Assembly: GCA_011046135.1 (NCBI GenBank)
Contig: DSBG01000092.1
Location: 11,034-75,033 of the forward strand
Reading direction: 5' to 3'
DNA length: 64,000 nt
Source of the DNA: Deltaproteobacteria bacterium
GTDB lineage: Bacteria; Desulfobacterota; Desulfomonilia; UBA1062
The notes beneath the pieces were generated by a model. That model worked only from the letters and a program-made list of their open reading frames with translations. It was not told where the DNA came from and did not search any database. Each line of letters starts with the position of its first letter. Position 1 is the stretch's first letter. The translations under genes and the position numbers were made by a program. Shown in pieces: positions 1,165 through 25,188 of this stretch.

Positions 1165-2130
1165 TTATACCTTTTCCCCTCCAGTCTCATTGGCCTGGGC
1201 GCGGATGTACTCCCGGAAGTCTCTCCCGGTACGGATGATCTCCCGCATGTCGGAACGCCGGGTCCACCTGCTGTGCAGCCAGAACCACTGGTGGGGGTAC
1301 TTTCGAACCACATCTTCCACCCATGCCTGCATGGTGTCGCTCAGGGGTTGCATGGCCTCCCTGAGGGTGCCGAAGTCTCTGGAATCCAGCGCCTCTGAGA
1401 AGACCACCCGGTAGGTGTCTCCTTCCTTGATGGCATGAACCGAGAGTACGAGGGCGTCGCCTTTCACGGCGAGAAATGCCGGGGCAGGGTTCGTCGGTGC
1501 GGGCATGCCGAAGAAGTCGCACAGGAGCCCGTCTGAGCGTTTTCCCCGCTGGTCTACCAGGATACCGATGATGTTGCCCTTCTTCAATTCTTTGACGAGC
1601 ATGAGGGCCTTGCCCGTGGGAGGCAGGATCGTGGCCCCCGAGCGTGCCCTGATACCGTCGATGATGGCCTCCAGCCGGGGGTCGTTGCGGACATCGGCCA
1701 TGACACAGAACCTGATGCCAATGACCCTGGGCAGGTGCGAGAGGACCTCCCAGTTCCCGATGTGGCCGGTGATGATCATGAGGCCGCGTCCGGTGGCGAG
1801 GGCTGCTTCGAGATGTTCCGTTCCTTCGACAACGATCCTCTTTCTGATCTCCTCATCGCCCATGAATGAGAAGCGGATCGCATCGATGAGGATGTCTCCA
1901 TGGAACATGAACACCTCTCTGACCAGGGAACTCCGGTACGCATCACCAAGGGCAGCCTTCATCTGGATCTGTGCGACCTTTCTGTGGAACCCGTCGAGGT
2001 AGTACCCGGCAAAGCCCAGGGCCCTGCCGATTGTAAGCACCGCGTTGTAGGGAAGGGTACGGATCAGGAACAGGGCTCCTGTGACGAGGTGATACTGGAG
2101 GGAGCTCAGAAGTGTGGATCGTTTTCCCAT
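1165..2130 (-). CDS. lipid A late acyltransferase, LpxL/LpxM (HtrB/MsbB) family paralog
   Basis: A 321-aa protein with an N-terminal membrane anchor and the HtrB-family core (HGDILIDAIRF...GRGLMIITGHIGNWE). It sits next to a second paralog. Confidence 0.75.
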   Translation of the reverse strand: MGKRSTLLSSLQYHLVTGALFLIRTLPYNAVLTIGRALGFAGYYLDGFHRKVAQIQMKAALGDAYRSSLVREVFMFHGDILIDAIRFSFMGDEEIRKRIVVEGTEHLEAALATGRGLMIITGHIGNWEVLSHLPRVIGIRFCVMADVRNDPRLEAIIDGIRARSGATILPPTGKALMLVKELKKGNIIGILVDQRGKRSDGLLCDFFGMPAPTNPAPAFLAVKGDALVLSVHAIKEGDTYRVVFSEALDSRDFGTLREAMQPLSDTMQAWVEDVVRKYPHQWFWLHSRWTRRSDMREIIRTGRDFREYIRAQANETGGEKV

Positions 2131-2142
2131 GAATGCTCGCCG

Positions 2143-3153
2143 CTACTGTTCTCGGGATCTGTCTGCATACGTGTTCGCCTGGGCAATGACATACGCTCTG
2201 AAGTCCAGACCCTTCCTGATGATGCGCCCCATGTCTTTTCTCCGCGTCCACCTGCTGTGGAGCCAGAGCCACTGCTCGGGATGTTCCCGTACCACGGAAC
2301 TCACCCATGCCTGCATCCAGGTGCTCAACTCCTGGACAGCGCGTGATTTCCAGGAATCAAAGACCGAGTCTATCTGGGTGTAGTCGTCCTGATAGGACCG
2401 GGTGTCAATGGGTTGTTCGAAACGGAACCGGTAATGATCACCTTCCTTGATGGTTGCCACTGGTATGACAAGGGCATCCCCCTTGAGCGCTATGAAGGCA
2501 GGGGCAGGGTTTGTAGGTGCAGGCATGCCGAGGAAGTCGCAGAAGAGTCCGGAATCCCGCTTTCCCATCTGGTCGATGACAAATCCCACGAGTCGACCCT
2601 TCTTCAGTTCCTTGATGAGCATGGGAACCATGCCTCCCTTCGGGGGAAGGTAGACGAATCCGCACCGGGATCGGATGTCCTCCATGATGGCCTGGATCCG
2701 GGGGTTCTTGTGGATGCGGCCCATGACACAGAACTCGATCCCGAGCAGTCTTGGGATATTTCCGAGGACCTCCCAGTTCATGTGGGCCGTGATCCCCAGC
2801 ACCCCCCGCCCTGAAGAGAGCACTGCCTCAAGGTTTTCTCTTCCCTCGATCACCACCCGTTTCTTAATCTCGTCATCGTCCAGGTAGGCGAACCTCAGGG
2901 CATCGATCATGAGCAGGACCTGGTTGATGAACACCTTTTTAGTAATGAGCGTTTCTTCTCCCCTGGTGCCCAGGGCGTGGCGGATCTGGAGGTTGCTGAT
3001 CCTTCGGTGGAGGGGGTCGAGGATCCACCCGAGGATTCCCAACGTTTTTCCCACAGCAACCACCAACGGATAGGGCAGGGATCGGATGAGAAAGAGGACA
3101 GTGCTGAACATGAGGGATTGGATCTCTCCAGCAATTCGATGTGCGATCTTCAT
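2143..3153 (-). CDS. lpxL: lipid A biosynthesis lauroyl/myristoyl acyltransferase (LpxL family)
   Basis: A 336-aa protein co-linear with the neighbouring paralog (VLFLIRSLPYP...ITAHMNWEVL) and directly upstream of gmhB-lpxK. Confidence 0.75.
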   Translation of the reverse strand: MKIAHRIAGEIQSLMFSTVLFLIRSLPYPLVVAVGKTLGILGWILDPLHRRISNLQIRHALGTRGEETLITKKVFINQVLLMIDALRFAYLDDDEIKKRVVIEGRENLEAVLSSGRGVLGITAHMNWEVLGNIPRLLGIEFCVMGRIHKNPRIQAIMEDIRSRCGFVYLPPKGGMVPMLIKELKKGRLVGFVIDQMGKRDSGLFCDFLGMPAPTNPAPAFIALKGDALVIPVATIKEGDHYRFRFEQPIDTRSYQDDYTQIDSVFDSWKSRAVQELSTWMQAWVSSVVREHPEQWLWLHSRWTRRKDMGRIIRKGLDFRAYVIAQANTYADRSREQ

Positions 3154-3702
3154 GGGGTCATGTCCTCCAGGATCCAGGAAACTGCCTCGGGCAGATCCCG
3201 TGCAATAAAATCAGCGCTGTGGTTGTGCATATCCATAACACTTGTTCTCAGGAGAATCCCTGTTCCCCCGACCCGGTGGATGGTTTCAATATCGTCGGGC
3301 TTGTCGCCTATCATATAGCATGCCCCGAGGTCCATGCCAAACTCTTGCGCTGCCTTCAAAAGCATTCCGGGCTGTGGTTTCCGGCACGAGCAGTGCATGC
3401 GATACGCGCTCACCGTACCATCGGGGTGGTGCGGGCAATAATAGATCCCGTCGATGCGTGCCCCCTGTTTGAGAAGAAGGCTAAGAAGCCGACCATGAAT
3501 GTCTGCGAGGATGGCTTCATCAAGAAATCCCCGCGCGATTCCCGACTGGTTCGTGGTCACGATGACCGGGATCCCCCGCTCATTGAGCATTTTCAGGGCA
3601 CGGGGTACCCCGGGAAGGATCTCGATCCCGTCGGGGTCTCTCAGGTAGTTCTTGTCCCGGATGATGGTATCATCCCTGTCGAGAAATACGCCTGTTCCTG
3701 AC
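3150..3702 (-). CDS. gmhB: D-glycero-D-manno-heptose 1,7-bisphosphate phosphatase (HAD family, GmhB-like)
   Basis: It carries an FLDRDDTI motif resembling the HAD DxDGT motif I, plus a C-terminal Cys cluster. The likely start is a TTG at 3702 preceded by AAGGAGA; the track ORF extends further 5' into lpxK. Confidence 0.7.
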
Positions 3703-4632
3703 AATGGTCTCGATCTCCTTGAGAATGGGTTCCATGGAGTCCATCCTGAGCGCAATCCTGACGCTCAAGAGCCTCTCTTTGACGTCTTGAATCCAGGGAT
3801 GTTCTATTCTGACAAGATCTTTCTCCGTGGTGATGATGAGATCCGACCCCTGGGCTTCTCTGACAATCATGCGCATGTCTCCGGCTGTGTAGGTATAGTG
3901 GTCTGCAAACACCCGTGAGGTTACTTGGGCCCCCAGGCTTCTCAATCCCGAGAGAAACCCTTCCGGGCGTGCGATTCCGCAGAAGGCGAACACCTTTTTT
4001 CCAAGAACGCTGGACAGGTCATGGGTGTTCCCGCTTACGTCTACAAAACAGCTCATCTCAATAGAAGCCTTCAGGGCATACGAGGAATTCTCCTTGGTGG
4101 AGATGATGATGTGTGCGCGGCTCAGGGAGGACAGGGGTTCTCTCAGGTGTCCTGCGGGAAGGAGGACCTCGCCGTCGAGGTTTCTTGACACGAGCACGAT
4201 ATCCAGGTCGCGGTGAATCCTGCGATGCTGGAACCCATCGTCGAGGATCACGAGGTCCGCATCGAGTTCGCTATACGCGAACCACGCTCCTTTCACCCGG
4301 TCGGGGGACTTTATCACCGGCACCCTGGTGGTCTGGGCCATGAGCAGGGCCTCGTCGCCCACATCGCGGCTCGAATGAGAACCGGTTACGAGCAGCGGAC
4401 CTGTGAGCCTGCCCCGATATCCCCTGGTGAGGATCACACAGCGGTGGCCTCGTTCCTTGAGCCTGCCTGAAAGCGCCATGACAAAAGGGGTCTTCCCGGT
4501 ACCACCGGTCTCGATGTTTCCGACACTGATGATCGCCGGTGGGGTGCGATGAACCGCCAGGATGCCCGCATCATAGAGGGCGTTGCGCCAGGATACGGCC
4601 CTGCCGTAGAGTGTTGAGAGGATCCTACTCAT
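3670..4632 (-). CDS. lpxK: tetraacyldisaccharide 4'-kinase
   Basis: A P-loop GGTGKTP in an LpxK-like context (VISVGNIETGGTGKTPFV). The start is taken as MSRIL at 4632, overlapping the msbA stop by 8 nt. Confidence 0.85.
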   Translation of the reverse strand: MSRILSTLYGRAVSWRNALYDAGILAVHRTPPAIISVGNIETGGTGKTPFVMALSGRLKERGHRCVILTRGYRGRLTGPLLVTGSHSSRDVGDEALLMAQTTRVPVIKSPDRVKGAWFAYSELDADLVILDDGFQHRRIHRDLDIVLVSRNLDGEVLLPAGHLREPLSSLSRAHIIISTKENSSYALKASIEMSCFVDVSGNTHDLSSVLGKKVFAFCGIARPEGFLSGLRSLGAQVTSRVFADHYTYTAGDMRMIVREAQGSDLIITTEKDLVRIEHPWIQDVKERLLSVRIALRMDSMEPILKEIETIVRNRRISRQG

Positions 4633-6388
4633 TGGAGAACTGAAGGCTGTACAGCCTTGTGTAATGGCCGTTTCGTGCGAGGAGGTTTTCATGGGTGCCC
4701 TGTTCCACGATGCTGCCCTGGGAGAGAACGATGATCCAATCCGCGTTCACGATCGTGGAGAGACGATGTGCAATCACCAGCGAGGTTCTGCCCTTCATGA
4801 GCTTGTCCATGGCTGACTGGACCTCACGTTCAGATTCCGTGTCCAGCGACGAGGTCGCCTCGTCCAGGATGAGGATGGGAGCGTCCTTGATGATGGCCCT
4901 GGCGATACAGATCCGCTGTTTCTGGCCTCCTGAAAGCCGCACCCCTGATTCGCCGATGACGGTATCGTAGCCCTGTTCCATGTCCTCGATGAATTCATGG
5001 GCATTGGCAGACCGTGCGGCTTGGATGATTTCATCCATTGAGGCGGTCTCTAATCCATAGGCGATGTTTGCCTTCACCGTGTCGTTGAACAGGATCATTT
5101 CCTGGGTTACCATGGCGATGTTGTCTCGCAGCGAGGCCAGCGTCACCTCCCTGATGTCGGTTCCATTCACCAGGATGTTCCCGCTGGTGACGTCGAAGAG
5201 TCTCGGCAGGAGATTGGCGATGGTGGTCTTCCCGGAGCCGGATTCTCCCACCAAGGCCACCTGCATCCCGGCTTTTGCCTGGAACGTGATTCCCTTGAGG
5301 GCATACTCCTCACACCCGTGATACCTGAACCACACGTCCTGAAATTCGAAATCGCCTCGTATCCTGCCGATTTTTTCCGCGCCCGGTTTCTCGGTGATCT
5401 CCGGGGTGGTATCGAGCACGGAGAAAATTCTCTTCGCCGCAGCGATTCCCTCCTGGATCTCGATATTCACGTTGTTGAGCTTTCGAATCGGTGAGTAGAG
5501 CAGGCCAAGCCCCAGGATGAACGATCCGAACTCACCCGGCGTGATGGACCCACTGATCACCTTCATCCCCCCGATCCAGAGGATGCTGGCAAAGGCAAGG
5601 CCGCCGATGAGTTCTATCAGGGGTCCGGAGATGGCACGAATGGCGATTCTCCTCATCCAGTTGCGATAGTACCTTCGATTTTCAGCGGAGAACCTCGTTT
5701 TCTCGTAGTTCTCCATGTTGTACGCCTTCACGATCCTGATGCCGCTGATGCCTTCGTCCAGGATACTCATGACATCTCCCATGACCTTCATGCTCCTGGT
5801 GGAGTAGCGCTTGAGTTTCTGTCCGAACCTGATAATGGGGTAGATCACCAGGGGAAAGACCACCATGGAGATGAGGGCGAGCTGCCAGTCCCGGTAGAAC
5901 ACCACGAACACGAGTCCTACCAGCGTGAAGGATTCCCTGATGAACCCGGTGATGGCGTTGGTGACAGAAGACTGGACCATGTTGACATCGTTGGTGATCC
6001 GGGAGATGAGGACTCCTGTGGGCGTTTTGAGAAAAAACGGCATGGACAGGGTCTGTATATGTGCGTAGAGCTGATCCCGCAGGTCCATGATGATGCGCTG
6101 GCCCACATCGGCAACGTAGTAGTAGCTGAAGTAATCACTGACACCCCTGATGAGGTAGATGGCGATGATCACGAGCGGGAAGACCTTCAGCATGAAGAGA
6201 TCCTGCTCGATCAGGATGTCATCCACCACGTATTTGAACAGCAGTGCCAGCAGCCCTGTTGTCCCGGATATGAAGAGCGTCAGAAACAGGGAAAAAGCCA
6301 GCTTGTGCCAGTAGGGCCTGATGTATCCCAGGAGCCTTCTGTAGATCCCGGTGTCCTTGATGGTTAGTGAAGCATCTCGCAGATCCAC
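4625..6388 (-). CDS. msbA: lipid A export ABC transporter, fused permease/ATPase (MsbA)
   Basis: A 587-aa protein with six N-terminal transmembrane segments, Walker A GESGSGKT, the ABC signature LSGGQKQR and Walker B ILILDEATS. It lies between lpxK and lpxB. Confidence 0.85.
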   Translation of the reverse strand: MDLRDASLTIKDTGIYRRLLGYIRPYWHKLAFSLFLTLFISGTTGLLALLFKYVVDDILIEQDLFMLKVFPLVIIAIYLIRGVSDYFSYYYVADVGQRIIMDLRDQLYAHIQTLSMPFFLKTPTGVLISRITNDVNMVQSSVTNAITGFIRESFTLVGLVFVVFYRDWQLALISMVVFPLVIYPIIRFGQKLKRYSTRSMKVMGDVMSILDEGISGIRIVKAYNMENYEKTRFSAENRRYYRNWMRRIAIRAISGPLIELIGGLAFASILWIGGMKVISGSITPGEFGSFILGLGLLYSPIRKLNNVNIEIQEGIAAAKRIFSVLDTTPEITEKPGAEKIGRIRGDFEFQDVWFRYHGCEEYALKGITFQAKAGMQVALVGESGSGKTTIANLLPRLFDVTSGNILVNGTDIREVTLASLRDNIAMVTQEMILFNDTVKANIAYGLETASMDEIIQAARSANAHEFIEDMEQGYDTVIGESGVRLSGGQKQRICIARAIIKDAPILILDEATSSLDTESEREVQSAMDKLMKGRTSLVIAHRLSTIVNADWIIVLSQGSIVEQGTHENLLARNGHYTRLYSLQFSNE

Positions 6389-7449
6389 TGTGCAACTCCT
6401 TGTGATGCCTTTTTCGTACCAAGAAGATCCCGCATGTGGGAAAAGGCGTTCCTTGTTTGGCAGAAAAGAGATCTATCCTGGATAAACCGCAGGAGGAACT
6501 CGGCCAGGCGGGTTCCGGTGAACTCGTGCTGGATGAGTTCGGGAACGATGCGTTTCCCAGAGATGATGTTCGGCATGCCGATGTGGGGTATCTTCACGAA
6601 GGAACTGGCAATGCAGTAGTTGATACGTGATGTTCTGTAGCAGATAATTTCGGGAATGCCTCGGACTGCCAGTTCGAGGGTCGATGTGCCGGATTTCACC
6701 ATGGCAAGGTCAACCTCGGGCAGTTCGCCGGTGAGCTCGATATCACCATCTACCAGCTTCTCGATGTCTCCGGGTTCCAGCCCAGGTGCCACAGGGAGGA
6801 GCCAGGAGATCTCGGGATGCTTTTCTCCCACGATGCGTTTCGCTTCCAGCATCACGGGAAGGATCTGTGAAATTTCGTGTGATCTGCTTCCGGGAAGCAG
6901 GGCAATACGCTTCGGAGGCCAGGAGACTTCTGCCATTTCACGTGCCAATTCCATAATGGGGTGGCCCACGTAGCGCGCGTTTACACCAAAGGAGCGGAAG
7001 AATTCCTCTTCGAAGGGAAAGATGACTGCAAGGCCATTGGTGATCTTGGAAAGGTGTTCAGCCCGGGACCGCCGCCAGGCCCAGGCCTGTGGAGCGATGT
7101 AGTAGAGCGTCCTGAACCCGTGCGCATGAGCCCTGCGGGCAATCCTCATGTTGAAGTCCGGCAGGTCGAGCAGGACCACGATGTCGGGGTTTCTCTGCTT
7201 CATGAGGTGCGTTAGCCCCTGGTAGACTTTCAGAATCCTTCCCATTTTAGGGATCACGTCAGAAAAGCCCATAACAGAGAGTTCATCCATGGAATAGACG
7301 CACTCCATGCCCGAGGCTTCCATCGCAGGACCACCCATGCCGAAAAAAGCGACACCATCATCAAGGGTCCTCACGGCCCTTATGACCTGTGAAGCGTGTC
7401 TGTCGGCGCTTGGTTCCCCTGCTACCATGAGGATGTTCTTCATAGTCAT
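6364..7449 (-). CDS. lpxB: lipid-A-disaccharide synthase
   Basis: A 361-aa GT19-family protein (MVAGEPSADRHA...YYIAPQAWAWR). Confidence 0.9.
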   Translation of the reverse strand: MTMKNILMVAGEPSADRHASQVIRAVRTLDDGVAFFGMGGPAMEASGMECVYSMDELSVMGFSDVIPKMGRILKVYQGLTHLMKQRNPDIVVLLDLPDFNMRIARRAHAHGFRTLYYIAPQAWAWRRSRAEHLSKITNGLAVIFPFEEEFFRSFGVNARYVGHPIMELAREMAEVSWPPKRIALLPGSRSHEISQILPVMLEAKRIVGEKHPEISWLLPVAPGLEPGDIEKLVDGDIELTGELPEVDLAMVKSGTSTLELAVRGIPEIICYRTSRINYCIASSFVKIPHIGMPNIISGKRIVPELIQHEFTGTRLAEFLLRFIQDRSLFCQTRNAFSHMRDLLGTKKASQGVAQWICEMLH

Positions 7450-7453
7450 CGCC

Positions 7454-8374
7454 CTAGGGCACGACCATCGAATCTTTTACCCGATACGCCATTTCTACGG
7501 CCTTGAGTCCGGCTTCCCCGTCCACTTCGACCTGGCTGCCCTCTCGCACCGCATCCACGAACGATCGGAGCTCAGCAGCCAGGGCGTCGGAATCATCAAT
7601 CTTAAGGTGGGTGTGGGTGATCTCTCTGTGCTCAGTGAGGGTGTAGATATCCACGGCGGACTGTGCAAAATCAATGGAGATATACGAGTCGCTCTGGAAA
7701 ATTCTGATCTTGCGCATGATCTCAGCACTGACCCTGCTTGCGGTGATATTGGCGATACACCCCGAGGCAAACTTGATCCTTGCATTGGCTATGTCGACCG
7801 AGCCCGTGAGGACCGGGACTCCAACGGATTCCACGGAGGTAACCTCTGAGGTGACCAGAGAGAGAATGATGTCGAGGTCATGGATCATGATGTCCAGGAT
7901 CACATCCACGTCCGCCCCGCGCTGCCTGAAGGGGCTTATCCGGTGAGCCTCGATGAACATGGGGTGCGTGATACTCGACTGAAGGTGCTTCAGGGCGGGG
8001 TTGAACCGCTCCAGGTGGCCGATCTGGAGCATGGCGGAGCCTCTGTGTGCTGCATCGATGAGAGAGACAGCGTCTTCGATGCGTGCCGCGATTGGTTTTT
8101 CCAGCAGGACGGCGATCCCCCGTTCCAGAAACGGCATCGCCACCTCGGCATGAGCGCTCGTGGGTACTGCGATGCTGACTGCATCGAGACGGTCAATGAT
8201 CCCCTCTGCTGAGGTGTAGGCTTGAGTGCCTGTTTCCCGGGAAACAAGGACCGCACGATCTTGATCGATATCCACCACCCCAAGGAGTTCGACATCCTCC
8301 ATGGCGGCGTACTTAAGGGCGTGGAATCTGCCGAGATACCCGACGCCGATCACGGCGGCCTTGAGGGGATTCAT
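7454..8374 (-). CDS. Gfo/Idh/MocA-family NAD(P)-dependent oxidoreductase (GnnA-like UDP-GlcNAc 3-dehydrogenase candidate)
   Basis: It has an N-terminal Rossmann motif AVIGVGYLGRFH and the family EKP motif (LLEKPIA). Its stop and start overlap lpxA by 4 nt (ATGA), and it sits between lpxA and lpxB. Confidence 0.75.
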   Translation of the reverse strand: MNPLKAAVIGVGYLGRFHALKYAAMEDVELLGVVDIDQDRAVLVSRETGTQAYTSAEGIIDRLDAVSIAVPTSAHAEVAMPFLERGIAVLLEKPIAARIEDAVSLIDAAHRGSAMLQIGHLERFNPALKHLQSSITHPMFIEAHRISPFRQRGADVDVILDIMIHDLDIILSLVTSEVTSVESVGVPVLTGSVDIANARIKFASGCIANITASRVSAEIMRKIRIFQSDSYISIDFAQSAVDIYTLTEHREITHTHLKIDDSDALAAELRSFVDAVREGSQVEVDGEAGLKAVEMAYRVKDSMVVP

Positions 8375-9144
8375 CTCGCGATACCCCGGGTCGAGGTGGA
8401 GAGGAACTCCACCAGCGCGCGGATCTCTTCCTCGGTGATCTCTTGTCTCAGCGCCTCGATAGCGTCTTTCAGGAGCAGTCCCTGCTTGAAGATGGTGCGG
8501 TAGGCCTTCTCGACCCGCTTGATCTGATCTGGTCTGAAACCGTTTCTCTTCAGTCCGATGGAGTTGACCCCGAACAGACGGGCACGGTCTCCTGCGGCGC
8601 GGGCATAGGGGACGATATCGAGACTTACCATGGATCCGCCCCCGATAATGGCATAGGCCCCGATGCGGGTAAACTGATGGATTGCGGAGAGGCCGCCGAT
8701 GATGGCATGATCCTGGATCTTCACATGGCCGGCCAGCGTCGCGAGATTGCCCATGACCACATGATTGCCGATGACGCAGTCATGGGCCACGTGGCAATAA
8801 GCCATGATGAGGTTGTTGTTCCCGATGGACGTGACTCCCCTGTCCTTAACGGTCCCCCGGTTGATGGTAACGAACTCCCGGATGGTGTTGTTTTCACCGA
8901 TGACCAGCCGTGTGTCCTCGCCACGATACGAGTGGTCCTGCGGGGGGGTTCCGATGCTCGCATATCCGGTGAAGGTGCAATTTCCTCCGATCTCGGCAGG
9001 ACCCCGAATCATGCAGTAGGGACCGATGGTGGTCTTCGCTCCGATGGATGTCCTCTCCCCGATCGTTGCATAGGGGCCGACGACCACATCGTCTGCAAGC
9101 TCAGCCCCATCGGCGATTAGGGCGGTGGGATCAATCTTTGCCAA
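8371..9144 (-). CDS. lpxA: acyl-ACP:UDP-N-acetylglucosamine O-acyltransferase
   Basis: Left-handed beta-helix hexapeptide repeats and an LpxA-specific C-terminal helical domain. The likely start is a TTG at 9144, 10 nt after AAGGAGG; the track ORF's extra N-terminal 99 aa overlap lpxD out of frame. Confidence 0.85.
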   Translation of the reverse strand: MAKIDPTALIADGAELADDVVVGPYATIGERTSIGAKTTIGPYCMIRGPAEIGGNCTFTGYASIGTPPQDHSYRGEDTRLVIGENNTIREFVTINRGTVKDRGVTSIGNNNLIMAYCHVAHDCVIGNHVVMGNLATLAGHVKIQDHAIIGGLSAIHQFTRIGAYAIIGGGSMVSLDIVPYARAAGDRARLFGVNSIGLKRNGFRPDQIKRVEKAYRTIFKQGLLLKDAIEALRQEITEEEIRALVEFLSTSTRGIAR

Positions 9145-10141
9145 TGGATTCGAGCCTCCTTTCCAGAGAGCGTATGCGCTTGAGCATTTCGGGAAGGTCC
9201 TTGTACACCTTCTGTACCCGGAGCCAGTGTCGGTGATCCATTGCGGGGAACCCCGAGACCACGCTCCCGGCAGCGAGATCCGATGCGATTCCAGCCCTGG
9301 CTGCTGCAACACAGCCGTCACCGATGGTGATATGTCCCCCGATTCCGCACTGGCCGGCAAGAACGACGTTTGACCCGATCTGTGCACTGCCCGAGATCCC
9401 GGTCTGAGAGACGATGATGGTGTGTTCACCGATGACAACATTGTGACCCACCTGGATGAGATTGTCCATCTTCACGCCGCTGCCGATCCTGGTGCTGGTG
9501 AGCGCTGCACGGTCGATCGTGCAGTTGCTCCCGATCTCGACATGGTCGCCGATGATCACGATCCCCTTCTGGGGGATCTTCACATGGCGGGACCCGTCCC
9601 AGACAAAGCCGAATCCGTCCGATCCAATGACGACGCCGCTGTGGATAATGCAGTTGCTGCCCAGGGTACATCCGTCATAGATCACGACATTCGGATAACA
9701 GACAGTCTGATCGCCGATGGTGACGTTTGCACCGAGATAGCACCCGGGATAGATGATGCACCCCTTCGATACCCTGGCACCGGCACCAACGTTCACGTGA
9801 GGGTAGATGCATGCCCCCGCATCGACAGAAGCATCGGGATGGATACAGGCCAGGGGGGATATTCCCGGCTCAGGGGTTTCATCGGGGTATACGAGAGACA
9901 CGACGCGGGCGAAATAGAGGTAGGGGTCCTTCGTGATGATCTGGGGAATGGCAGTTTCGATCTCGTGGGCGACAATGATCGCTCCTGCACGAGAGGTCTT
10001 CACCCTGTCCCTGTACTTCGGGTTTGCAAGAAACGTGATCTCGTCTGAGGATGCCTCCTCAAGGGTGGATGCTCCGGAGACAACCCGATCCTCTCCCTTG
10101 AGAATTCCGCCGAGTTCTGTAACGAGATCACTCAGGCGCAT
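9131..10141 (-). CDS. lpxD: UDP-3-O-acylglucosamine N-acyltransferase
   Basis: A 336-aa protein with an N-terminal uridine-binding domain, hexapeptide repeats and a C-terminal helix, typical of LpxD. Confidence 0.9.
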   Translation of the reverse strand: MRLSDLVTELGGILKGEDRVVSGASTLEEASSDEITFLANPKYRDRVKTSRAGAIIVAHEIETAIPQIITKDPYLYFARVVSLVYPDETPEPGISPLACIHPDASVDAGACIYPHVNVGAGARVSKGCIIYPGCYLGANVTIGDQTVCYPNVVIYDGCTLGSNCIIHSGVVIGSDGFGFVWDGSRHVKIPQKGIVIIGDHVEIGSNCTIDRAALTSTRIGSGVKMDNLIQVGHNVVIGEHTIIVSQTGISGSAQIGSNVVLAGQCGIGGHITIGDGCVAAARAGIASDLAAGSVVSGFPAMDHRHWLRVQKVYKDLPEMLKRIRSLERRLESIGKD

Positions 10142-10144
10142 GGG

Positions 10145-10687
10145 TTACTCTTTCTTGGAATTCTTGTTCTGATAGTGGTTGTTGAATATCTCCATGATGG
10201 GATCCGTGATGTCGATCTTTTCTGATGCATAGACGATGGCAGGATTACGCTTGTCAAGGATGAGATCGATGGCATGCTTCAGGCCGTAATCATTGATGAT
10301 GATGTCGAGTTCCATGCTCCAGGGTTTGAGCAGAGAAATCTCCAGACGTTTCAGATCGTCTTGGGCATCCTTTACGAGACGATTGTATTTTCTGAGCTCC
10401 TGTTCGTAGAGGGTTTCAAGTTCTGCCTTTGCTGCGACGCTCATGGTGGGGGATTTCGCGGCAATGTCGTCACCCATCGCTTTTATCTTCTCCTGCAACT
10501 TCTGGATCTCGATTTCTCGTTCATCCTTCAGCGCGCTGAGCTGTTTGAAGGCCTCCTTGCCTGCCAGGGATTCATACAGGATCCTCTGGGAGTCGATGTA
10601 GGCAATCCTGACGTTCTGAGCCCCTGCAGTTCCTGCAAGGAACAAGAGTACAGCGAGTGCTGTAACTATCCGGGTTCCGTGTCTCAT
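10145..10687 (-). CDS. skp: periplasmic chaperone Skp/OmpH
   Basis: A signal peptide (MRHGTRIVTALAVLLFLAGTAGAQ) followed by a long coiled-coil rich in K, E and Q. It lies between bamA and lpxD. The start is taken at the internal Met at 10687, which has an AAGGAG RBS. Confidence 0.75.
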   Translation of the reverse strand: MRHGTRIVTALAVLLFLAGTAGAQNVRIAYIDSQRILYESLAGKEAFKQLSALKDEREIEIQKLQEKIKAMGDDIAAKSPTMSVAAKAELETLYEQELRKYNRLVKDAQDDLKRLEISLLKPWSMELDIIINDYGLKHAIDLILDKRNPAIVYASEKIDITDPIMEIFNNHYQNKNSKKE

Positions 10688-10710
10688 AGGTATACTCCTT
10701 AATGTACGTG

Positions 10711-13143
10711 TTAGAAAAACCTTCCTATCGTGAAATCCCATTGCGATTTAGATTCAAAGTCTTTGGGATCGATGACCTTGCCGTATTCCAGGCGTAGCGG
10801 TCCCATGGGCGTCACCCACCTGATGCCTGCACCATAGGATCTCTTTAGGTTTGTGAGATCTATCATCTTTTCATAGGAATTCCCCTGGTCAAAAAACAGG
10901 ATCCCGTACAACCCGGGGATATTTGCGATGGGAAAACTGAGTTCTGTATTGAAAACGAGCATGCGTTTGCCCCCGATGACACTTCCGAAGGTGTCCCTGG
11001 GTCCGATCTCTCCGTACTTGAACCCCCTGATGCTGTTCATTCCACCGAGGGTAAAGCGTTCATATTCTGGAAGATCATCTCCCTGAGCAGGGTTGATGGT
11101 ACCCCATCTCGCCTTTAACATCAAGGCGAGAGTGTCCTTGTACAGGGGGAAGAACTGCGCTGCCGTCGCTGTGACTCGGGTGAAATGAAAGTCTCCTCCA
11201 AGGCCTGCATACTCGAGGGAGAGCATGAGATCCGAGCCTCTGGTGGGTCTGAAAAAATCGTTGGTGGTGTCTCGATGCAGGGTATTGGTAATGCTGCTCG
11301 TGACACCTCCTGTAATCTCGTCTTCTGAAAGAGCGCTCAGGTAGACGGGGTCGATATCCTTGAGTTCCAGAACGTGCGTGTACGAATAGATGATATAGTG
11401 CCGGATCTCCTCGATGAGCGGGTATCCAAGACGGATATTTCCTCCGCGGGACTCCTTTGTGTAGTACACATACTCTCTCTCCATGTTGAAGAGGCGCACG
11501 CCAAGGGAGACCGGACGTCCAAAGAGCCAGGGCTCTTCGAAATCCACCATGTAATTCTTCTTTTTTGCCCCGTATTCAGTGCTCAAGCGGCTCTTGAGAC
11601 CCAGACCCAGGAGGTTGTTTTCGCTCAACTCAAGGGTTCCCATCGCACCGTCGAGACTCGAATAGGCGATACCGAAGGCAAATGCCCCCGTAGTGGTCTC
11701 CTCGACGTCAACGAGCAGTGACATGGTTTCTTCTTCCCGGGGGATGGGGTCGATAGTCACGGTGCTGAAATAACCGAGCCTGGAGATCCTGTCCCTACTG
11801 CGCCTGAGGTCGGTTGAGGAGAACAGATCTCCCTCGTCGAGCTGCAATTCTCTCCGGATAACCTTGTCACGGGTTTTTTGATTTCCCCTGATGTAGATTG
11901 TGTCGATAGAAACAGGATTTCCCTTGGTGATCTTGAAGATCAGGCCCACGGTGGTTTCCTCTTCCTCCTTGGTGATGGGTCTGATCTGTGCGTAGGCATA
12001 CCCCTGATTCATATACACATCACGCAGATTTTCGATGGAGGTATGCACCTTGCTCTTGCTCATGACGTCCCCTGTCTTGAGGTCCAGCTTTTTCATGAGT
12101 TCTTCTCTTGGCTGAATGAGATCTCCGGTGATGTCAATGCTCCCGATGGTAAAGAGGGGGCCTTCTTCAATGGGGATGGTGATGAATATTCCTGTATCCT
12201 CTTGGACATCGACCCGAGGACGACCGACCTTCGCCTGGATGTATCCGTTGTCGGCATAGAACTGCTCGATCCTCAGGAGATCATTGTCGAGGCCCGCTTC
12301 GAGGTAGGAACCGGCGTGCCCGAACAGACCCAGGATCCATCGATTTTTTGTCTCCATGATGTCCCTGAGTTTCCTCGATGAGATGTTTTCATTTCCGTCG
12401 AACTCCACCTTGCGGACATAGAGCTTCTCGTTTTCTTCGATGGAGAAGGTCAACGTGATCCCGCCCTCGGTTGGCTGAGTATCGGAACCCACCATCACGT
12501 TGTAGAATCCCTTTTCACGGTAGAGGCTCCTGATGCGGTCTATGCTCGTTTTGAGCAGTCTCGTGTTCAGGATGTCGAAGCGTTTCAACCCAATGGCGGA
12601 GAGGATATCTTCGTCTTTGATCTTGTCGTTGCCCTCCACGTCGATACTGACGATCACGGGGTACTCGGTGACGACGAAGGTGAGCGTTCCCTCGGAGAAA
12701 GAGGCATCGCATGTCTCGAAGTAGCCCATGGCAAAGATGGATTCTATGTCCTTTCTGATCCTGTCCCTGTGGACGATATCACCACGTGTTGTGGTGATGC
12801 GGAATCGTATTGCCTCCGAGCTGATTCGGGATTGTCCCGTAATGTTCACCTGGTCCACCACACAGATGCCCTTGAGTCTGAGGTACCCGTCGAGGGCCTC
12901 CTCGGGTGTCGAAGCGGTGTAGGTCAGGTCTGTGGTATCATAGACGCGGAAGACTCCGTCGCTTGTTTCCATTGCGATACTCAGTGCTGCATCTGTCCGG
13001 AGCGAAACACAGAGAACCTCCTGGAGGATCTTGGAAAGGGTTGCGTCTGCTGTGGCGATGTTCACTACCGTGGCATTGAGGTAAAGTGGTGTGAGGAAAA
13101 ACAGGAGAATGATGAACAGGTGTCTAGACAACGTGAGGTTCAA
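10711..13143 (-). CDS. bamA: outer membrane protein assembly factor BamA
   Basis: An 810-aa protein with a signal peptide, POTRA repeats and a C-terminal Omp85 beta-barrel that ends in an aromatic residue (…GRFF). Confidence 0.9.
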   Translation of the reverse strand: MNLTLSRHLFIILLFFLTPLYLNATVVNIATADATLSKILQEVLCVSLRTDAALSIAMETSDGVFRVYDTTDLTYTASTPEEALDGYLRLKGICVVDQVNITGQSRISSEAIRFRITTTRGDIVHRDRIRKDIESIFAMGYFETCDASFSEGTLTFVVTEYPVIVSIDVEGNDKIKDEDILSAIGLKRFDILNTRLLKTSIDRIRSLYREKGFYNVMVGSDTQPTEGGITLTFSIEENEKLYVRKVEFDGNENISSRKLRDIMETKNRWILGLFGHAGSYLEAGLDNDLLRIEQFYADNGYIQAKVGRPRVDVQEDTGIFITIPIEEGPLFTIGSIDITGDLIQPREELMKKLDLKTGDVMSKSKVHTSIENLRDVYMNQGYAYAQIRPITKEEEETTVGLIFKITKGNPVSIDTIYIRGNQKTRDKVIRRELQLDEGDLFSSTDLRRSRDRISRLGYFSTVTIDPIPREEETMSLLVDVEETTTGAFAFGIAYSSLDGAMGTLELSENNLLGLGLKSRLSTEYGAKKKNYMVDFEEPWLFGRPVSLGVRLFNMEREYVYYTKESRGGNIRLGYPLIEEIRHYIIYSYTHVLELKDIDPVYLSALSEDEITGGVTSSITNTLHRDTTNDFFRPTRGSDLMLSLEYAGLGGDFHFTRVTATAAQFFPLYKDTLALMLKARWGTINPAQGDDLPEYERFTLGGMNSIRGFKYGEIGPRDTFGSVIGGKRMLVFNTELSFPIANIPGLYGILFFDQGNSYEKMIDLTNLKRSYGAGIRWVTPMGPLRLEYGKVIDPKDFESKSQWDFTIGRFF

Positions 13144-19873: not shown

Positions 19874-20063
19874 AACAATTTTTCGTCTGGTTCTTCTCCT
19901 CGTTCCTGCTGTGAATGCGTCTATTTTTTTCTGAAGAAAGATGAATACATGGAGAGGACGTATCCTTGAGACGGGAGTCTCCATGCGGAAAAGGATGCTG
20001 CAGGGGAAATTATTGCCTGCCAGCCTGATCATGCAAACTGTCTTCTGAAGCGAATCTTGTCCC

Positions 20064-20080
20064 GTGGCATTGATATTGCT
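20064..20080 (+). promoter_or_regulatory. sigma-54 promoter upstream of flgF
   Basis: TGGCAT-tgata-TTGCT has GG and GC at consensus -24/-12 spacing. It lies 28 nt upstream of the flgF ATG and is followed by the RBS GAGGGAGGA. Confidence 0.55.
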
Positions 20081-20107
20081 CAAAGGACAGCCGAGGGAGG
20101 AAGTCAT

Positions 20108-20845
20108 ATGGAACAGGGAATGTACACGGCGGCCTCAGGTGCCATTGCCTTGGAAGAACGTCTTGAGGTGATATCCAATAACCTTGCCAACGTGAATACT
20201 ACCGGGTTCAAAAAAGATGCACTGGTGTTCGAAGAATTCTCGCGAATACTTGATACAGCATCGCTGGCTCCCGGTCAGTATCGCACTACACCGGTGGATG
20301 TCCGTGTGGGGGGATATTTTGTCGACACAACACCAGGTCCAGTCAGGATGACGAGGAATCCCCTCGATGTGGCCGTGATGGGAGATGGGTTTTTCGTCGT
20401 GAATACCGATGATGGCCCCCGGTATACCCGATCAGGATCGTTTCAGCTTTCTCCCGAGGGTGTCCTCGTGACTGTTCATGGGGATGCAATCCAGGGGGAA
20501 GGGGGTGATATCTTCATCGAAGATGGTGAGCTTGTCATCGATTCGAGTGGAAGCATCAGCATCAATGGTGCCGTCACCGATACGCTCCAGGTCGTGAAGA
20601 TCCCAGCGGAGGCACTTCTCCGGGAGGGAAACGGCCTCTTCTCCATAAGGGAAGGGTATTCCCCGGAGGTTCTTGACGCCCCTTGGGTCGCTCAAGGCAG
20701 CATCGAGGCCTCGAATGTCGATCCCATTCGGGAGATGATAACCATGATCACTGTTCAACATGCATACGAGTCGATCCAGAAGGTAATCAAGACAATCCAG
20801 GATAGTTATTCCCACTCCATACAGAAGGTGGGCACTATTGCATAA
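20108..20845 (+). CDS. flgF: flagellar basal-body rod protein FlgF
   Basis: An N-terminal rod motif (MYTAASGAIALEERLEVISNNLANVNTTGFKKD) and the C-terminal helix conserved in FlgF/FlgG. Confidence 0.8.
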   Translation: MEQGMYTAASGAIALEERLEVISNNLANVNTTGFKKDALVFEEFSRILDTASLAPGQYRTTPVDVRVGGYFVDTTPGPVRMTRNPLDVAVMGDGFFVVNTDDGPRYTRSGSFQLSPEGVLVTVHGDAIQGEGGDIFIEDGELVIDSSGSISINGAVTDTLQVVKIPAEALLREGNGLFSIREGYSPEVLDAPWVAQGSIEASNVDPIREMITMITVQHAYESIQKVIKTIQDSYSHSIQKVGTIA

Positions 20846-20863
20846 CAAAAAGGAGGAGAAGAC

Positions 20864-21646
20864 ATGATACGGGCAATGTGGACCTCTGCATCAGGTATGA
20901 GCGCACAGCAGATGATCATCGATGTCATGGCAAATAATCTTGCAAACGTGAATACAACCGGCTTCAAGAAGAGCAGGACGGAATTCGAAGATCTCTTCTA
21001 TGCAACCTATAAAGAGAAGGGAAATCCCAGCGCACTAGGCGGGACCGTGCCGGTAGGGATTCAGGTGGGTATGGGAACACGCCCGGTTTCTGTTCAGAAG
21101 ATTTTCACCCAGGGAGATTATGTTGAAACAAAGAACAATCTCGATCTTGCCATCGAAGGAAACGGGTTTTTTCTCTTATTTTCAGACGGTGAAGAAATCT
21201 ATACCCGAGACGGCGCCTTCAAGATCGACAGCGAAGGATACATTGTGAATTCAAGGGGAGAGCGGCTTCAGCCGGATTTTTCTGTTCCCACTGAGACAGC
21301 CTCCATAACCGTAGACAAGAACGGAGAGATCGCCTGTCTGTCATCGGCAGGTGATGTGATCAGCCAGGGGCAGATTCCCCTGTACCAGTTCACGAACCCT
21401 GCGGGACTCAAGTCCATAGGCAGGAATTCGTACATTACGACCCCCGCGTCGGGAGATCCGATCCAGGGAGTTGCAGGAAGCGTCAATTTTGGCACCATCT
21501 CTCAGGGCTATCTGGAGATCTCCAATGTGGATGCGGTGGAAGAGATGATCAATATGATCGCTGGTCAGAGGGCCTACGAGATCAATTCCAAGGCCATCAA
21601 AACAGCGGATGCCATGTTGCAGGTTGTCAGCAACATCGCACGGTAA
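20864..21646 (+). CDS. flgG: flagellar distal rod protein FlgG
   Basis: A 260-aa protein with ANNLANVNTTGFKK near the N-terminus and a GQRAYE…NSKAIKTADAML C-terminus. Confidence 0.9.
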   Translation: MIRAMWTSASGMSAQQMIIDVMANNLANVNTTGFKKSRTEFEDLFYATYKEKGNPSALGGTVPVGIQVGMGTRPVSVQKIFTQGDYVETKNNLDLAIEGNGFFLLFSDGEEIYTRDGAFKIDSEGYIVNSRGERLQPDFSVPTETASITVDKNGEIACLSSAGDVISQGQIPLYQFTNPAGLKSIGRNSYITTPASGDPIQGVAGSVNFGTISQGYLEISNVDAVEEMINMIAGQRAYEINSKAIKTADAMLQVVSNIAR

Positions 21647-21654
21647 GGGACATC

Positions 21655-22605
21655 ATGAAACAGGTTCTGCTGATTGTCCTGAGTGTGATCCTTCTGACAC
21701 CACCTGAGATCGTATCGGGTGAACCGACCCTTATCCAACTCAGGGAAAAAGCCGATGTCTCAGGGGATACGGTGCTCCTGAAGCATATCGCAGCTCTTAC
21801 GGGACCTGACGCGCACGATCTCGCCGGTCTTTCCATCATGCCTGCTCCACAGAGTCCTCTTCCCTCGAGTATTTCAGCGATGTACGTGGCTCAAAAAGTG
21901 CGGGCAATGCATTCTGGAGTAGTTGCATTCAGCGGTTCAGAAGAGGTGTCCATTACTCAGCGTTATGTGACTATTCCAACCAAGACGCTGGAGGAGATCT
22001 TCATCAGGGAAGTCATGGCGAAATCCCCCTGGAAGGATCATGCCACGATCGTTGTTGAGAACTTCAAGACTCCGGGACATGTTCGCGTACGAGAGATTGA
22101 CGCTCAGAGGTCCCAGGCAAAATTTTCCCCTCATGAGAACTTTTTGGGACTCACGACCATGACTCTGCAGTTTGGACGCGGTTCAAGCTCAGCGTCTTTC
22201 AACCTCTCAGCCCGTGTACGTGCCATTGCCCATGTGCCTGTTGCGAAAACACCGATCGATCGCGGAGCGCTCATCACACGAGCGGATCTGGAAACACGCG
22301 AACTTGATATCTCTGCCTTTCCATCCATCATCCTGGATCCGCAGGAGTGTGTGGGGATGAGGGCAAAGACAGGGCTCAGACAAGGGCGACCTATCCTGAG
22401 AATCAATGTAGAGGTTCCACCGGTAGTCTCCCGGGGAGATCTCGTGACTCTCGAGGTGAGGGTAAACAGCCTCATCGTACAGGACAAGGGGATCGCCTTG
22501 AGAGACGGGAATTTCTCGGATCAGATCCCGGTAAAAAACATAACATCTGGAAAGCAGGTGATTGGCACCGTTATTGCTGTATCAGTCGTACAGGTGAAAA
22601 TTTAG
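21655..22605 (+). CDS. flgA: flagellar P-ring assembly chaperone FlgA
   Basis: A signal peptide and a C-terminal SAF/FlgA domain (…GDLVTLEVRVNSLIVQDKGIALRDG…), between flgG and flgH. Confidence 0.75.
   Translation: MKQVLLIVLSVILLTPPEIVSGEPTLIQLREKADVSGDTVLLKHIAALTGPDAHDLAGLSIMPAPQSPLPSSISAMYVAQKVRAMHSGVVAFSGSEEVSITQRYVTIPTKTLEEIFIREVMAKSPWKDHATIVVENFKTPGHVRVREIDAQRSQAKFSPHENFLGLTTMTLQFGRGSSSASFNLSARVRAIAHVPVAKTPIDRGALITRADLETRELDISAFPSIILDPQECVGMRAKTGLRQGRPILRINVEVPPVVSRGDLVTLEVRVNSLIVQDKGIALRDGNFSDQIPVKNITSGKQVIGTVIAVSVVQVKI
22563..22578 (+). promoter_or_regulatory. sigma-54 promoter inside the 3' end of flgA, upstream of flgH
   Basis: TGGCAC-cgtta-TTGCT is a perfect match to TGGCAC-N5-TTGCW. 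It lies 37 nt upstream of the flgH start and is followed by the RBS AGGAGGA. Confidence 0.55.
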
Positions 22606-22614
22606 GAGGAAGAA

Positions 22615-23307
22615 ATGATCCAGCGATACAGTGTCATGGTTGCTGCTCTCCTGGTTTTGAGTGCTTGTGCCCACACGAGAAGCGGGCCTGAGTTTATCGA
22701 AGACACGATGGCTATTCCCGTGGAGGAAGAGCCCGTAGTCGTTGAGGCCCCTGGGTCATTATGGACACCCAGCGCCAAATTTGTGAACATGTACGGAGAT
22801 TTGAAGGCGTCTCGTGTTGGGGATATCGTTGTCGTCCAGGTTGTCGAGAGCTCGTCGGCCAACAAGGAAGCTAAGACAGAATCGGAGAAATCGAGCTCGG
22901 TCGACAATTCCGTCGACAATGTCCTCGGGTTGCCGCTTGATGCATCATCGGTCTTCGGATATAAGCTCAGCCCGACGCTTGCTGCGTCATCGTCCTCGGA
23001 TTTCGAGGCCGATGGAAAGACCTCGAGGAAAGGTTCTATCAGTGCGGTCGTCTCTGCAAGGGTTGTGCGCGTGCTTCCTTCGGGTAATATGATGATCAAC
23101 GGAAAGAAGCAGATCAGGGTGAATAACGAGCACCAGTACATCATTCTCTCCGGCATTGTTCGGCCCGAAGATATCAGCCCGTCAAACTCAATACAGTCGA
23201 CGTACATAGCCGACCTGCACCTTGACTACTACGGAAGTGGCATCATCGGTGACCAGCAAAACAAAGGTATTCTGGGCAGGGCCTTTGACAAAATATGGCC
23301 CTTCTGA
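22615..23307 (+). CDS. flgH: flagellar L-ring lipoprotein FlgH
   Basis: A lipobox (LVLSAC) and FlgH-family C-terminal repeats (…TYIADLHLDYYGSG…). Confidence 0.85.
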   Translation: MIQRYSVMVAALLVLSACAHTRSGPEFIEDTMAIPVEEEPVVVEAPGSLWTPSAKFVNMYGDLKASRVGDIVVVQVVESSSANKEAKTESEKSSSVDNSVDNVLGLPLDASSVFGYKLSPTLAASSSSDFEADGKTSRKGSISAVVSARVVRVLPSGNMMINGKKQIRVNNEHQYIILSGIVRPEDISPSNSIQSTYIADLHLDYYGSGIIGDQQNKGILGRAFDKIWPF

Positions 23308-23315
23308 GGTATGAC

Positions 23316-24401: not shown

Positions 24402-24721
24402 TGTACGACGTAAGCCCCCTGACTCACATCCGGCATACGAACCCAGAGAAGGCCCTCGAGAAGGCATGCAAGGACTTTGAAGCCATTTTTATCCACCAGC
24501 TCCTAAAATCCATGGGCAAGACCGTGTCCGAGGGGATACTCGATGCAGGACTTGCCGATGAGATCTACAAGGACATGCTCTACATGAATATTGCGAGTTC
24601 GGTGGCTCAGTCAGGGGGACTTGGGCTCTCGGAGATTCTCAGTGAGTACATCAGGACCGATGGCACGCAAGAGCATGCAACCCGATTCCTGCCTGGTGAT
24701 AGGATTTCAACGAGCGAATGA
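24398..24721 (+). CDS. flgJ: flagellar rod-assembly protein FlgJ, rod-binding domain only
   Basis: It contains the Rod_binding motif FEAIFIHQLLKSMGKT…GGLGLSEIL and has no C-terminal glucosaminidase domain. Its ATG overlaps the flgI stop (ATGA). Confidence 0.7.
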   Translation: MMYDVSPLTHIRHTNPEKALEKACKDFEAIFIHQLLKSMGKTVSEGILDAGLADEIYKDMLYMNIASSVAQSGGLGLSEILSEYIRTDGTQEHATRFLPGDRISTSE

Positions 24722-24767
24722 GTCTCTGGTATGGAACAGGGAAAACAATGAAAGCCGGGGTGAGTAC

Positions 24768-25187
24768 ATGACCTGTACAGACATGATGGCGGCACTCGGG
24801 AAAGAAAAAGAGCTGATTGCAGCACTCAACGTGTGTCTCGAAGAGGAATTGGGATATATCTCAGCCCAGGACCTTGTGGGGCTGGAAGAATCTTTGCCGC
24901 ACAAGCAGAAACTGCTCCTCGAGATTGCGAAGAACAGACAGGGGATTGATATGGAGAGGGACCCCGACCAGGAACATGCACAGACCATCGGGATCCTTCA
25001 GCAGGAACTTATTGAACTGTGGAAAAAGGCAAACAACTTCAACGAATTGTCCAAGACGCTCGTGAGTAGCAGGCTCAATGACATTGAACGTCAGATCGCC
25101 ATCTTCCTTGCAGGGCTGAAGGGAACCTATACCAGACAGGGGAAGACGTCGGGTGTGCCTGCGCGCATGATAAAGACGGGAGTTTAG
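24768..25187 (+). CDS. FlgN-like flagellar export chaperone (candidate)
   Basis: An all-helical protein of about 140 aa immediately upstream of flgK. The start could be any of several nearby Met codons. Confidence 0.5.
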   Translation: MTCTDMMAALGKEKELIAALNVCLEEELGYISAQDLVGLEESLPHKQKLLLEIAKNRQGIDMERDPDQEHAQTIGILQQELIELWKKANNFNELSKTLVSSRLNDIERQIAIFLAGLKGTYTRQGKTSGVPARMIKTGV

Positions 25188-25188
25188 T

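Follow-up and report, generated by a model that had tools for sequence, protein, structure and literature searches.

How should a sugar-nucleotide dehydrogenase gene be read when it sits inside a lipid A operon and no aminotransferase gene stands beside it? The question is raised by a 64,000-nt stretch of contig DSBG01000092.1 (assembly GCA_011046135.1), from an uncultured Deltaproteobacteria bacterium of the Desulfomonilia; we refer to the whole of this stretch as the window. At 7454-8374 on its minus strand lies an open reading frame (ORF; ATG start, TAG stop) for a 306-aa oxidoreductase of the Gfo/Idh/MocA family, flanked by lpxA (8371-9144, minus) and lpxB (6364-7449, minus). Its predicted product resembles GnnA, the UDP-GlcNAc (uridine diphosphate N-acetylglucosamine) 3-dehydrogenase of Acidithiobacillus ferrooxidans. 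Our analysis suggests that the gene probably encodes a functional GnnA-type, NAD+-dependent UDP-GlcNAc 3-dehydrogenase feeding a lipid A that contains 2,3-diamino-2,3-dideoxyglucose (GlcN3N), with its aminotransferase partner (GnnB, a DegT-family enzyme, in the known pairs) encoded at an unlinked site. The gene is a further member of the known GnnA family and not a new kind of system.

Identity of the protein and its apparent coupling to lpxA

The public entry for the identical protein, from a metagenome-assembled genome (MAG) labelled Deltaproteobacteria/Desulfomonilia, reads only 'Gfo/Idh/MocA family oxidoreductase'. Pfam searches recovered the GFO_IDH_MocA domain (PF01408, 89 bits) together with the C-terminal domains PF22725 (C3) and PF02894 (C), so that the two-domain architecture of Gfo/Idh/MocA proteins, an N-terminal Rossmann domain and a C-terminal alpha/beta domain, is present. 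The top NCBIfam family was NF040723, UDP-GlcNAc 3-dehydrogenase (212 bits, residues 4-298 against positions 1-296 of the 302-position model), and the second, a distant one, was myo-inositol 2-dehydrogenase (TIGR04380, 111 bits, below its cutoff of 355). When PDB sequences were searched with phmmer, the best match was 7BVJ/7BVK, with an E-value of 3e-60 over residues 4-300; the next sequence followed at 1.7e-18 and 24% identity. An AlphaFold2 model made from a 15-homologue alignment had a mean predicted local distance difference test (pLDDT) score of 90.9, and a Foldseek search of the PDB placed five A. ferrooxidans GnnA chains at ranks 1-5 (template modelling (TM) scores 0.88-0.91, with 0.89-0.90 and an E-value of 5e-33 for the best match), the next protein coming at 4e-24. 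The Foldseek entry name confirms 7BVJ as 'UDP-N-acetylglucosamine 3-dehydrogenase GnnA from Acidithiobacillus ferrooxidans'. The window protein is 39.7% identical to this enzyme, and homologues encoded next to gnnB average 42.7% identity to it. The GnnA-like identification proposed in the initial annotation is thus borne out by the best solved-structure match in both sequence and fold, by the best NCBIfam family and by the presence of homologues in gnnB-containing operons.

The residues expected of such an enzyme are in place. In this family the GxGxxG motif, an acidic residue after beta-2, the lysine of an EKP motif and an H-D pair have catalytic or dinucleotide-binding roles. The window protein has GVGYLG (residues 10-15; G10-x-G12-x-x-G15), D35, E92-K93-P94 and H165-D166, and the same motifs are common to the gnnB-linked homologues and 7BVJ. 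In a 15-sequence alignment (A1) of the window protein with 14 relatives at 58-81% identity, 84 columns are invariant, all of these motif residues included. A second Gfo/Idh/MocA gene in the window (51800-52744) was considered as a gnnA paralogue and rejected, its similarity being confined to the surroundings of the EKP motif (27 bits).

The position of the gene between lpxA and lpxB, as first described, is agreed upon by the ORF, its neighbours and the public gene calls: the identical 306-aa protein was called by three independent gene callers (ENA, Logan and JGI) on identical contigs, as was the 257-aa LpxA. The ATGA overlap with lpxA could likewise be read directly in the minus-strand sequence at 8374-8371, where '...ATC GCG AGA TGA ATC CCC...' contains both the TGA stop of lpxA and the ATG start of the gnnA-type gene. 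This overlap implies that translation of the gnnA-type gene would be coupled to that of lpxA. At the other end, the junction read in the sequence places the lpxB ATG 4 nt downstream of the TAG stop, and the gene is probably co-transcribed with those for the core enzymes of lipid A synthesis. The wording of the initial annotation, 'fused into' the operon, accordingly needs to be divided: the gene is embedded in the operon and probably translationally coupled, and it is a separate ORF rather than a gene fusion.

From this we infer an enzyme activity, an unlinked aminotransferase and a lipid A structure that would be connected as follows. The GnnA-type enzyme would oxidise the 3''-OH of UDP-GlcNAc to a 3-ketone in an NAD+-dependent reaction; a pyridoxal phosphate-dependent aminotransferase of the DegT family, encoded elsewhere in the genome, would turn this ketone into the amino sugar nucleotide UDP-GlcNAc3N; and LpxA would N-acylate the new amine. 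LpxC, LpxD, LpxB and LpxK of the Raetz pathway would then yield a lipid A with 2,3-diamino-2,3-dideoxyglucose and amide-linked acyl chains at position 3. Amination would be obligatory in this scheme because a 3-keto sugar offers LpxA no group to acylate and the dehydrogenase is apparently coupled to lpxA. The window LpxA is nearer to structures 4EQY, 5JXX, 5DEM, 3R0S and 1LXA, which we take to be the Burkholderia, Moraxella, Pseudomonas, Campylobacter and E. coli enzymes, respectively, than to 3HSQ, presumably that of Leptospira; judged by these matches it appears to be an ordinary LpxA. Robins et al. are said to have attributed the selectivity of Leptospira LpxA, in 2009, to the orientation and geometry of a backbone carbonyl and not to side chains, and an alignment of LpxA residues is unlikely to be a decisive guide to a preference for UDP-GlcNAc3N.

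Gene order and conservation in related loci

To place the locus among its relatives, loci were fetched with the GnnA alignment or the protein (80 each from genomes representing species and from metagenomes; numbered here with the prefix L), and LpxD, FabZ, LpxA, LpxI, GnnA, GnnB, LpxB, MsbA and LpxK were mapped onto them by tblastn. More than 100 clusters of homologues at 58-81% identity to the window protein were found, from similar MAGs and metagenomes. All 38 loci of the Desulfomonilia type (58-100% identity) have the order lpxD-lpxA-gnnA-lpxB-msbA-lpxK as far as their contigs extend, and over the same extent tblastn found no gnnB, fabZ or lpxI in any of them. The ATGA junction recurs in relatives L007-L010 and L099. 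The conservation of gene order across these 38 loci, and of the ATGA overlap in several of them, indicates that selection maintains the gene in its lipid A setting.

Across the 127 loci that could be classified, lpxB follows gnnA directly in 100 and gnnB is adjacent in 27. Homologues at 46-54% identity to the window protein lie in lpxA-gnnA-gnnB-lpxB operons of Desulfuromonadia and Gammaproteobacteria; for example, a Desulfuromonadaceae contig carries a homologue at 53% identity within lpxD-fabZ-lpxA-gnnA-DegT-lpxB-msbA, the classical gnnA-gnnB arrangement. An immediately 3' gnnB was found in loci of the Geobacter type, of Methylococcales and of Chromatiales, and in a number of others. The order lpxD-fabZ-lpxA-lpxI-gnnA-lpxB was seen in many further MAGs of Desulfobacterota, Binatia and related groups, with the lpxI call verified by Pfam in L028 and resting on tblastn matches elsewhere. 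Thus, once the Geobacter and gammaproteobacterial clades are set aside, most loci have lpxB next to gnnA and no gnnB. Far from being peculiar to the window, this layout is the norm among Desulfomonilia and among many further Desulfobacterota and Binatia, and the Desulfomonilia operon, having neither fabZ nor lpxI, is its most compact version. Because linkage to gnnB is the minority layout, a GnnA call should not be rejected for want of a neighbouring gnnB.

If the proteins encoded without a neighbouring gnnB had taken on another function, their sequences might be expected to differ from those of the gnnB-linked proteins. A column-by-column comparison of 27 gnnB-linked with 100 gnnB-less proteins showed no sign of functional or active-site divergence. 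Of 100 columns conserved at 90% or more in the gnnB-linked set, 70 are also conserved at 90% or more in the gnnB-less set, and all polar and motif residues are retained. Only three columns differ in most gnnB-less members: a V/I exchange, an I/L exchange and one loop that lacks 7 residues in proteins of the Desulfomonilia type. The residues in question, absent from the Desulfomonilia-type proteins, would follow residue 250 (columns 252-258 of alignment A1). At this place the Geobacter type has 'SMIPGLP' and A. ferrooxidans GnnA has 'GAGTVPGIPG', and the loop holds a Gly and a Pro that are conserved in the gnnB-linked homologues. In a neighbour-joining tree, A. ferrooxidans GnnA falls outside all surveyed sequences; most gnnB-linked members group within the clades of Geobacter and of the Gammaproteobacteria, and the gnnB-less members are mostly separate and correlated with taxonomy. 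The exceptions run in both directions: gnnB-less L062 lies inside Geobacter and gnnB-less L036 and L038 inside Methylococcales, and the gnnB-linked L021 and L058 lie elsewhere.

Some of the surveyed loci also differed in gene content. A Desulfomonilia-type metagenome contig (L103) has a 1.1-kb insertion between gnnA and lpxB, which was considered as a possible gnnB and rejected; it encodes a 201-aa multi-pass membrane protein (L103:4583-5188) that no other relative has at this place. Two LpxA paralogues surround or accompany gnnA in L026:3-2465 (lpxA-gnnA-lpxA') and in L170:8456-10954 (lpxA-lpxI-lpxA' beside gnnA-gnnB-lpxB), and L078:9234-14736 has a second lpxA in a divergent lpxB-lpxA-fabZ string after gnnA-gnnB. 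These paired loci recall the lpxA/lpxA' pair proposed for a hybrid GlcN3N-GlcN backbone in Capnocytophaga (PMC3342949).

The putative aminotransferase partner and competing explanations

The initial annotation had reported no DegT-type aminotransferase in the window, and both a Pfam scan of ORFs and a six-frame tblastn search agree with it. The only aminotransferase otherwise present, a class III enzyme at 32514-33800, was examined as an alternative partner and rejected, being HemL (593 bits, above the cutoff of 527). Throughout the 2.28 Mb of DNA fetched, DegT-like matches (E-value 1e-3 or lower) were confined to the 27 genes adjacent to gnnA. Beyond the surveyed loci, the organism-named top matches to GnnB all came from gnnB-linked or unrelated lineages. 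An exhaustive search of 50%-identity representatives gave a core GnnB of about three clusters followed by an unbroken range of DegT proteins, 27,969 representatives having E-values of 1e-30 or lower; the names of the top clusters (Ignavibacteria, Dictyoglomus and KSB1) were uninformative.

A number of observations weigh against a GnnA enzyme with an unlinked partner. The 212-bit score to NF040723 is below the equivalog cutoff of 450, and that model is named for archaea (UDP-GlcNAcDh_Arch); to judge by this score the window protein is not a member of the equivalog and is better filed under the bacterial GnnA kind. No DegT domain was detected by Pfam in any ORF of 340-430 aa in the 64-kb window, and tblastn with a bona fide operon GnnB gave no gnnB there, the best E-value being 0.28. 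Similarly, public contigs showed no DegT gene in the 8.8 kb past one end of the window and the 10 kb past the other, and none was found around the 142 gnnB-less loci, the 38 of the Desulfomonilia type included, over a distance of 10 kb or as far as the contig reached. The high-identity GnnB orthologues that were examined were all linked to gnnA, among them two cases on long contigs (gnnA-gnnB-lpxB). A weaker point is that no Desulfomonilia-labelled protein appeared among the top matches of single-sequence and profile searches with GnnB, which were not directed at any taxon and whose top lists, at 58% identity or more, were dominated by closer Geobacter and gammaproteobacterial sequences. A search of the literature at hand found no report of GlcN3N in Desulfobacterota, and we know of no lipid A structure for any member of the Desulfomonilia.

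On the other side, separation of the two genes has precedent. In M. loti gnnA and gnnB are known to be unlinked, and in Phyllobacterium, Bradyrhizobium and Brucella the gnnA-gnnB pair lies apart from lpxA, lpxB and lpxD (PMC5644692). Granulibacter makes a lipid A with GlcN3N, and its candidate gnnB genes, which are likewise unlinked, encode proteins with only 37-39% identity to the GnnB of A. ferrooxidans (PMC8036547). Because the gnnB-less layout is so widespread and the active site shows no divergence, we favour, of the two outcomes that the initial annotation allowed (a gnnB at another site or a different role for the dehydrogenase), a gnnB, or an equivalent DegT gene, located elsewhere in the genome.

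The alternative that survives best is a dehydrogenase derived from GnnA that operates with no GnnB and has another role in envelope synthesis, where it might oxidise or epimerise C3, either in UDP-GlcNAc or in a later intermediate of lipid A, or deliver its product to an aminating partner outside the DegT family. Such a role would accord with the 100 of 127 loci in which gnnB is not adjacent, with the lack of a DegT-like gene within the distance searched around the 142 gnnB-less loci, with the mostly separate, taxon-correlated positions of the gnnB-less proteins in the tree, and with the loop missing from the Desulfomonilia proteins. However, the active site shows no divergence from that of the gnnB-linked proteins, and a dead-end oxidation would make little sense in a lipid A operon, as LpxA presumably could not acylate a 3-keto sugar. 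Furthermore, the gnnB-less members found inside gnnB-linked clades (L062; L036 and L038) suggest a labile gene order rather than a change of function, and M. loti has gnnA and gnnB at unlinked sites (PMC5644692). We consider a GnnB-independent role unlikely. In a stronger version, which we regard as quite improbable, the Desulfomonilia and many other Desulfobacterota, Binatia and related lineages may truly be without a GnnB orthologue, and the 3-keto product would be handled by an unrecognised enzyme, or by C3 epimerisation or a non-DegT amination; their lipid A would then have a backbone variant, or its pathway a branch, that is so far undescribed.

It seems very unlikely that gnnB was lost and that the gene now persists as a decaying relic in an organism with a plain GlcN lipid A backbone. 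The absence of gnnB, fabZ and lpxI from the Desulfomonilia operon, compared with related operons, would be in keeping with such erosion, but the ORF is intact, the 14 aligned relatives retain 58-81% identity with 84 invariant columns that include the motif residues, the fold is predicted with high confidence, and retention of this kind across a whole class is not expected of a relic. Least credible of all is a generic Gfo/Idh/MocA sugar or inositol dehydrogenase that neighbours lpxA and lpxB by chance and has no part in lipid A synthesis: weaker matches to myo-inositol 2-dehydrogenases do exist (111 bits in NCBIfam; PDB E-values of 1e-14 to 1e-18), but the match to GnnA surpasses each of them by some 40 orders of magnitude, the start codon overlaps the lpxA stop, and the slot beside lpxB, after lpxA or lpxI where present, is conserved across phyla (lpxB next in 100 and gnnB next in 27 of 127 loci), a synteny by which the chance-neighbour explanation is effectively refuted already.

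To our knowledge, GlcN3N lipid A has not been reported for Desulfomonilia, for these Desulfobacterota or for Binatia. If the favoured GnnA assignment with an unlinked aminotransferase is correct, the lipid A of Desulfomonilia would have amide-linked acyl chains at position 3 on a GlcN3N backbone, and the same would probably hold for many anaerobic Desulfobacterota and Binatia with a gnnA-type gene beside lpxB. In the organisms covered by the summary of van Mourik et al. (2010) given in PMC8036547, lipid A of the GlcN3N type alters outer-membrane stability and innate immune recognition. The assignment would also be of use for annotation, in that proteins now labelled 'Gfo/Idh/MocA family oxidoreductase' could be named more precisely.

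The surrounding genes and comparison with known systems

The gnnA-type gene belongs to a string of minus-strand genes (1165-13143) with the order bamA-skp-lpxD-lpxA-gnnA-lpxB-msbA-lpxK-gmhB-lpxL-lpxL, in which the lpx and msbA assignments, the late acyltransferases excepted, score above curated NCBIfam cutoffs. The string opens with bamA (10711-13143; Pfam POTRA and Omp85 on public gene calls) and skp/ompH (10145-10741; Pfam OmpH, likewise on public gene calls), followed by lpxD (9131-10141; NF002060, 404 bits, cutoff 207), which overlaps the start of lpxA by 14 nt. The lpxA gene has a TTG start and encodes the acyl-ACP:UDP-GlcNAc (or UDP-GlcNAc3N) acyltransferase, ACP being acyl carrier protein (NF003657, 353 bits, cutoff 226; TIGR01852, 335 bits). 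Downstream of the gnnA-type gene come lpxB, for lipid A disaccharide synthase (TIGR00215, 254 bits, cutoff 190); msbA, for the lipid A flippase (4625-6388; TIGR02203, 648 bits, cutoff 602), which overlaps the end of lpxB; and lpxK, for tetraacyldisaccharide 4'-kinase (3670-4692; TIGR00682, 211 bits, cutoff 92), to which public gene calls give a later start and 320 aa. A gmhB-like gene for a heptose 1,7-bisphosphate phosphatase (3150-3755; 184 aa in public gene calls) scores 158 bits to NF006506, under the cutoff of 178, with HAD-IIIA domain models above their cutoffs. The string ends with a tandem pair of late acyltransferase genes of the LpxL type (2143-3153 and 1165-2130; Pfam Lip_A_acyltrans); NCBIfam lauroyl acyltransferase models match here with scores under their cutoffs.

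No fabZ lies between lpxD and lpxA in the window operon. In other Desulfobacterota fabZ and lpxI fill the lpxD-lpxA and lpxA-gnnA junctions, whereas the Desulfomonilia operon has neither. No LpxI was found in the window by tblastn, and neither lpxC nor lpxH was present among the window ORFs scanned; as LpxI and lpxH were not found in these searches, no UDP-2,3-diacylglucosamine hydrolase is recognised in the window. Closely downstream of the operon, past a PAS histidine kinase and some 2.5-3.5 kb ahead of window position 1, comes an omptin-family outer-membrane protease gene (L088:13584-14615), and L006 has the same omptin beside its operon.

Further along the window, a lipopolysaccharide-core cluster (49922-57538) holds the second, unrelated Gfo/Idh/MocA gene mentioned above, in which only the Rossmann domain was recognised. 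It is followed immediately by a radical S-adenosylmethionine (SAM) gene (52747-53964) and then by a GT9 heptosyltransferase gene (53966-55006). The cluster also contains another GT9 heptosyltransferase gene (56555-57538), a gene for a protein resembling kinases of 3-deoxy-D-manno-oct-2-ulosonic acid (Kdo) and WaaP (55031-56536), and a GT2-Kdo-kinase fusion (49922-51661). A gene for an HpaB-family protein lies at 46254-47768 (Pfam HpaB_N and HpaB); the organism is presumably an anaerobe, and this protein may be of the 4-hydroxybutyryl-CoA dehydratase type rather than an oxygenase. Flagellar basal-body genes (flgF/G, flgA, flgH, flgI and flgK) and cell-shape genes (mreB, mreC, PBP2 and rodA) occupy 20057-26964 and 37400-42588, and these housekeeping clusters show that the contig is chromosomal.

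How does this system compare with those already known? One set of counterparts is the UDP-GlcNAcA 3-dehydrogenases WbpB and WlbA, which pair with the aminotransferases WbpE and WlbC; they belong to the same superfamily and follow the same logic of a dehydrogenase plus a DegT enzyme. None of the 44 PDB sequences matched at an E-value of 1e-5 or lower is one that we would recognise as WbpB or WlbA, and on this basis the window protein appears to lie far nearer to GnnA than to these enzymes. The archaeal UDP-GlcNAc 3-dehydrogenase of NF040723 serves a different pathway; it matches the window protein end to end, yet the score is well under the cutoff.

Other relatives are found in the lpxA-lpxI-gnnA-lpxB operons of other Desulfobacterota, Binatia and allied groups (for example L028, L042 and L063), which likewise have a GnnA-type gene before lpxB and no gnnB nearby. 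They differ in that lpxI stands between lpxA and gnnA and fabZ is kept, whereas the window gnnA abuts lpxA. Desulfosarcina variabilis (L069) has the same gnnB-less order with no LpxI match. The gnnA-gnnB pairs of Desulfuromonadia/Geobacter and Gammaproteobacteria (for example L005, L015, L040, L035, L170 and L171) encode proteins 46-54% identical to the window protein and share its slot, the pair lying directly upstream of lpxB in the lpx operon and often straight after lpxA. Those operons have a DegT gene separating gnnA from lpxB and, as a rule, fabZ in the gap from lpxD to lpxA; the Desulfomonilia operon is without both. Finally, A. ferrooxidans GnnA, reportedly described by Sweet, Ribeiro and Raetz in 2004, differs from the window protein in having gnnB behind its gene, in about 7 additional residues in the loop after residue 250, and in some motif residues, with GHIKRVHP where the window protein reads GHLERFNP. 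In contrast, the two proteins share a two-domain fold (TM score 0.9), a full-length alignment at 40% identity, the GxGxxG, EKP and H-D motifs, and an association of their genes with lpxA and lpxB.

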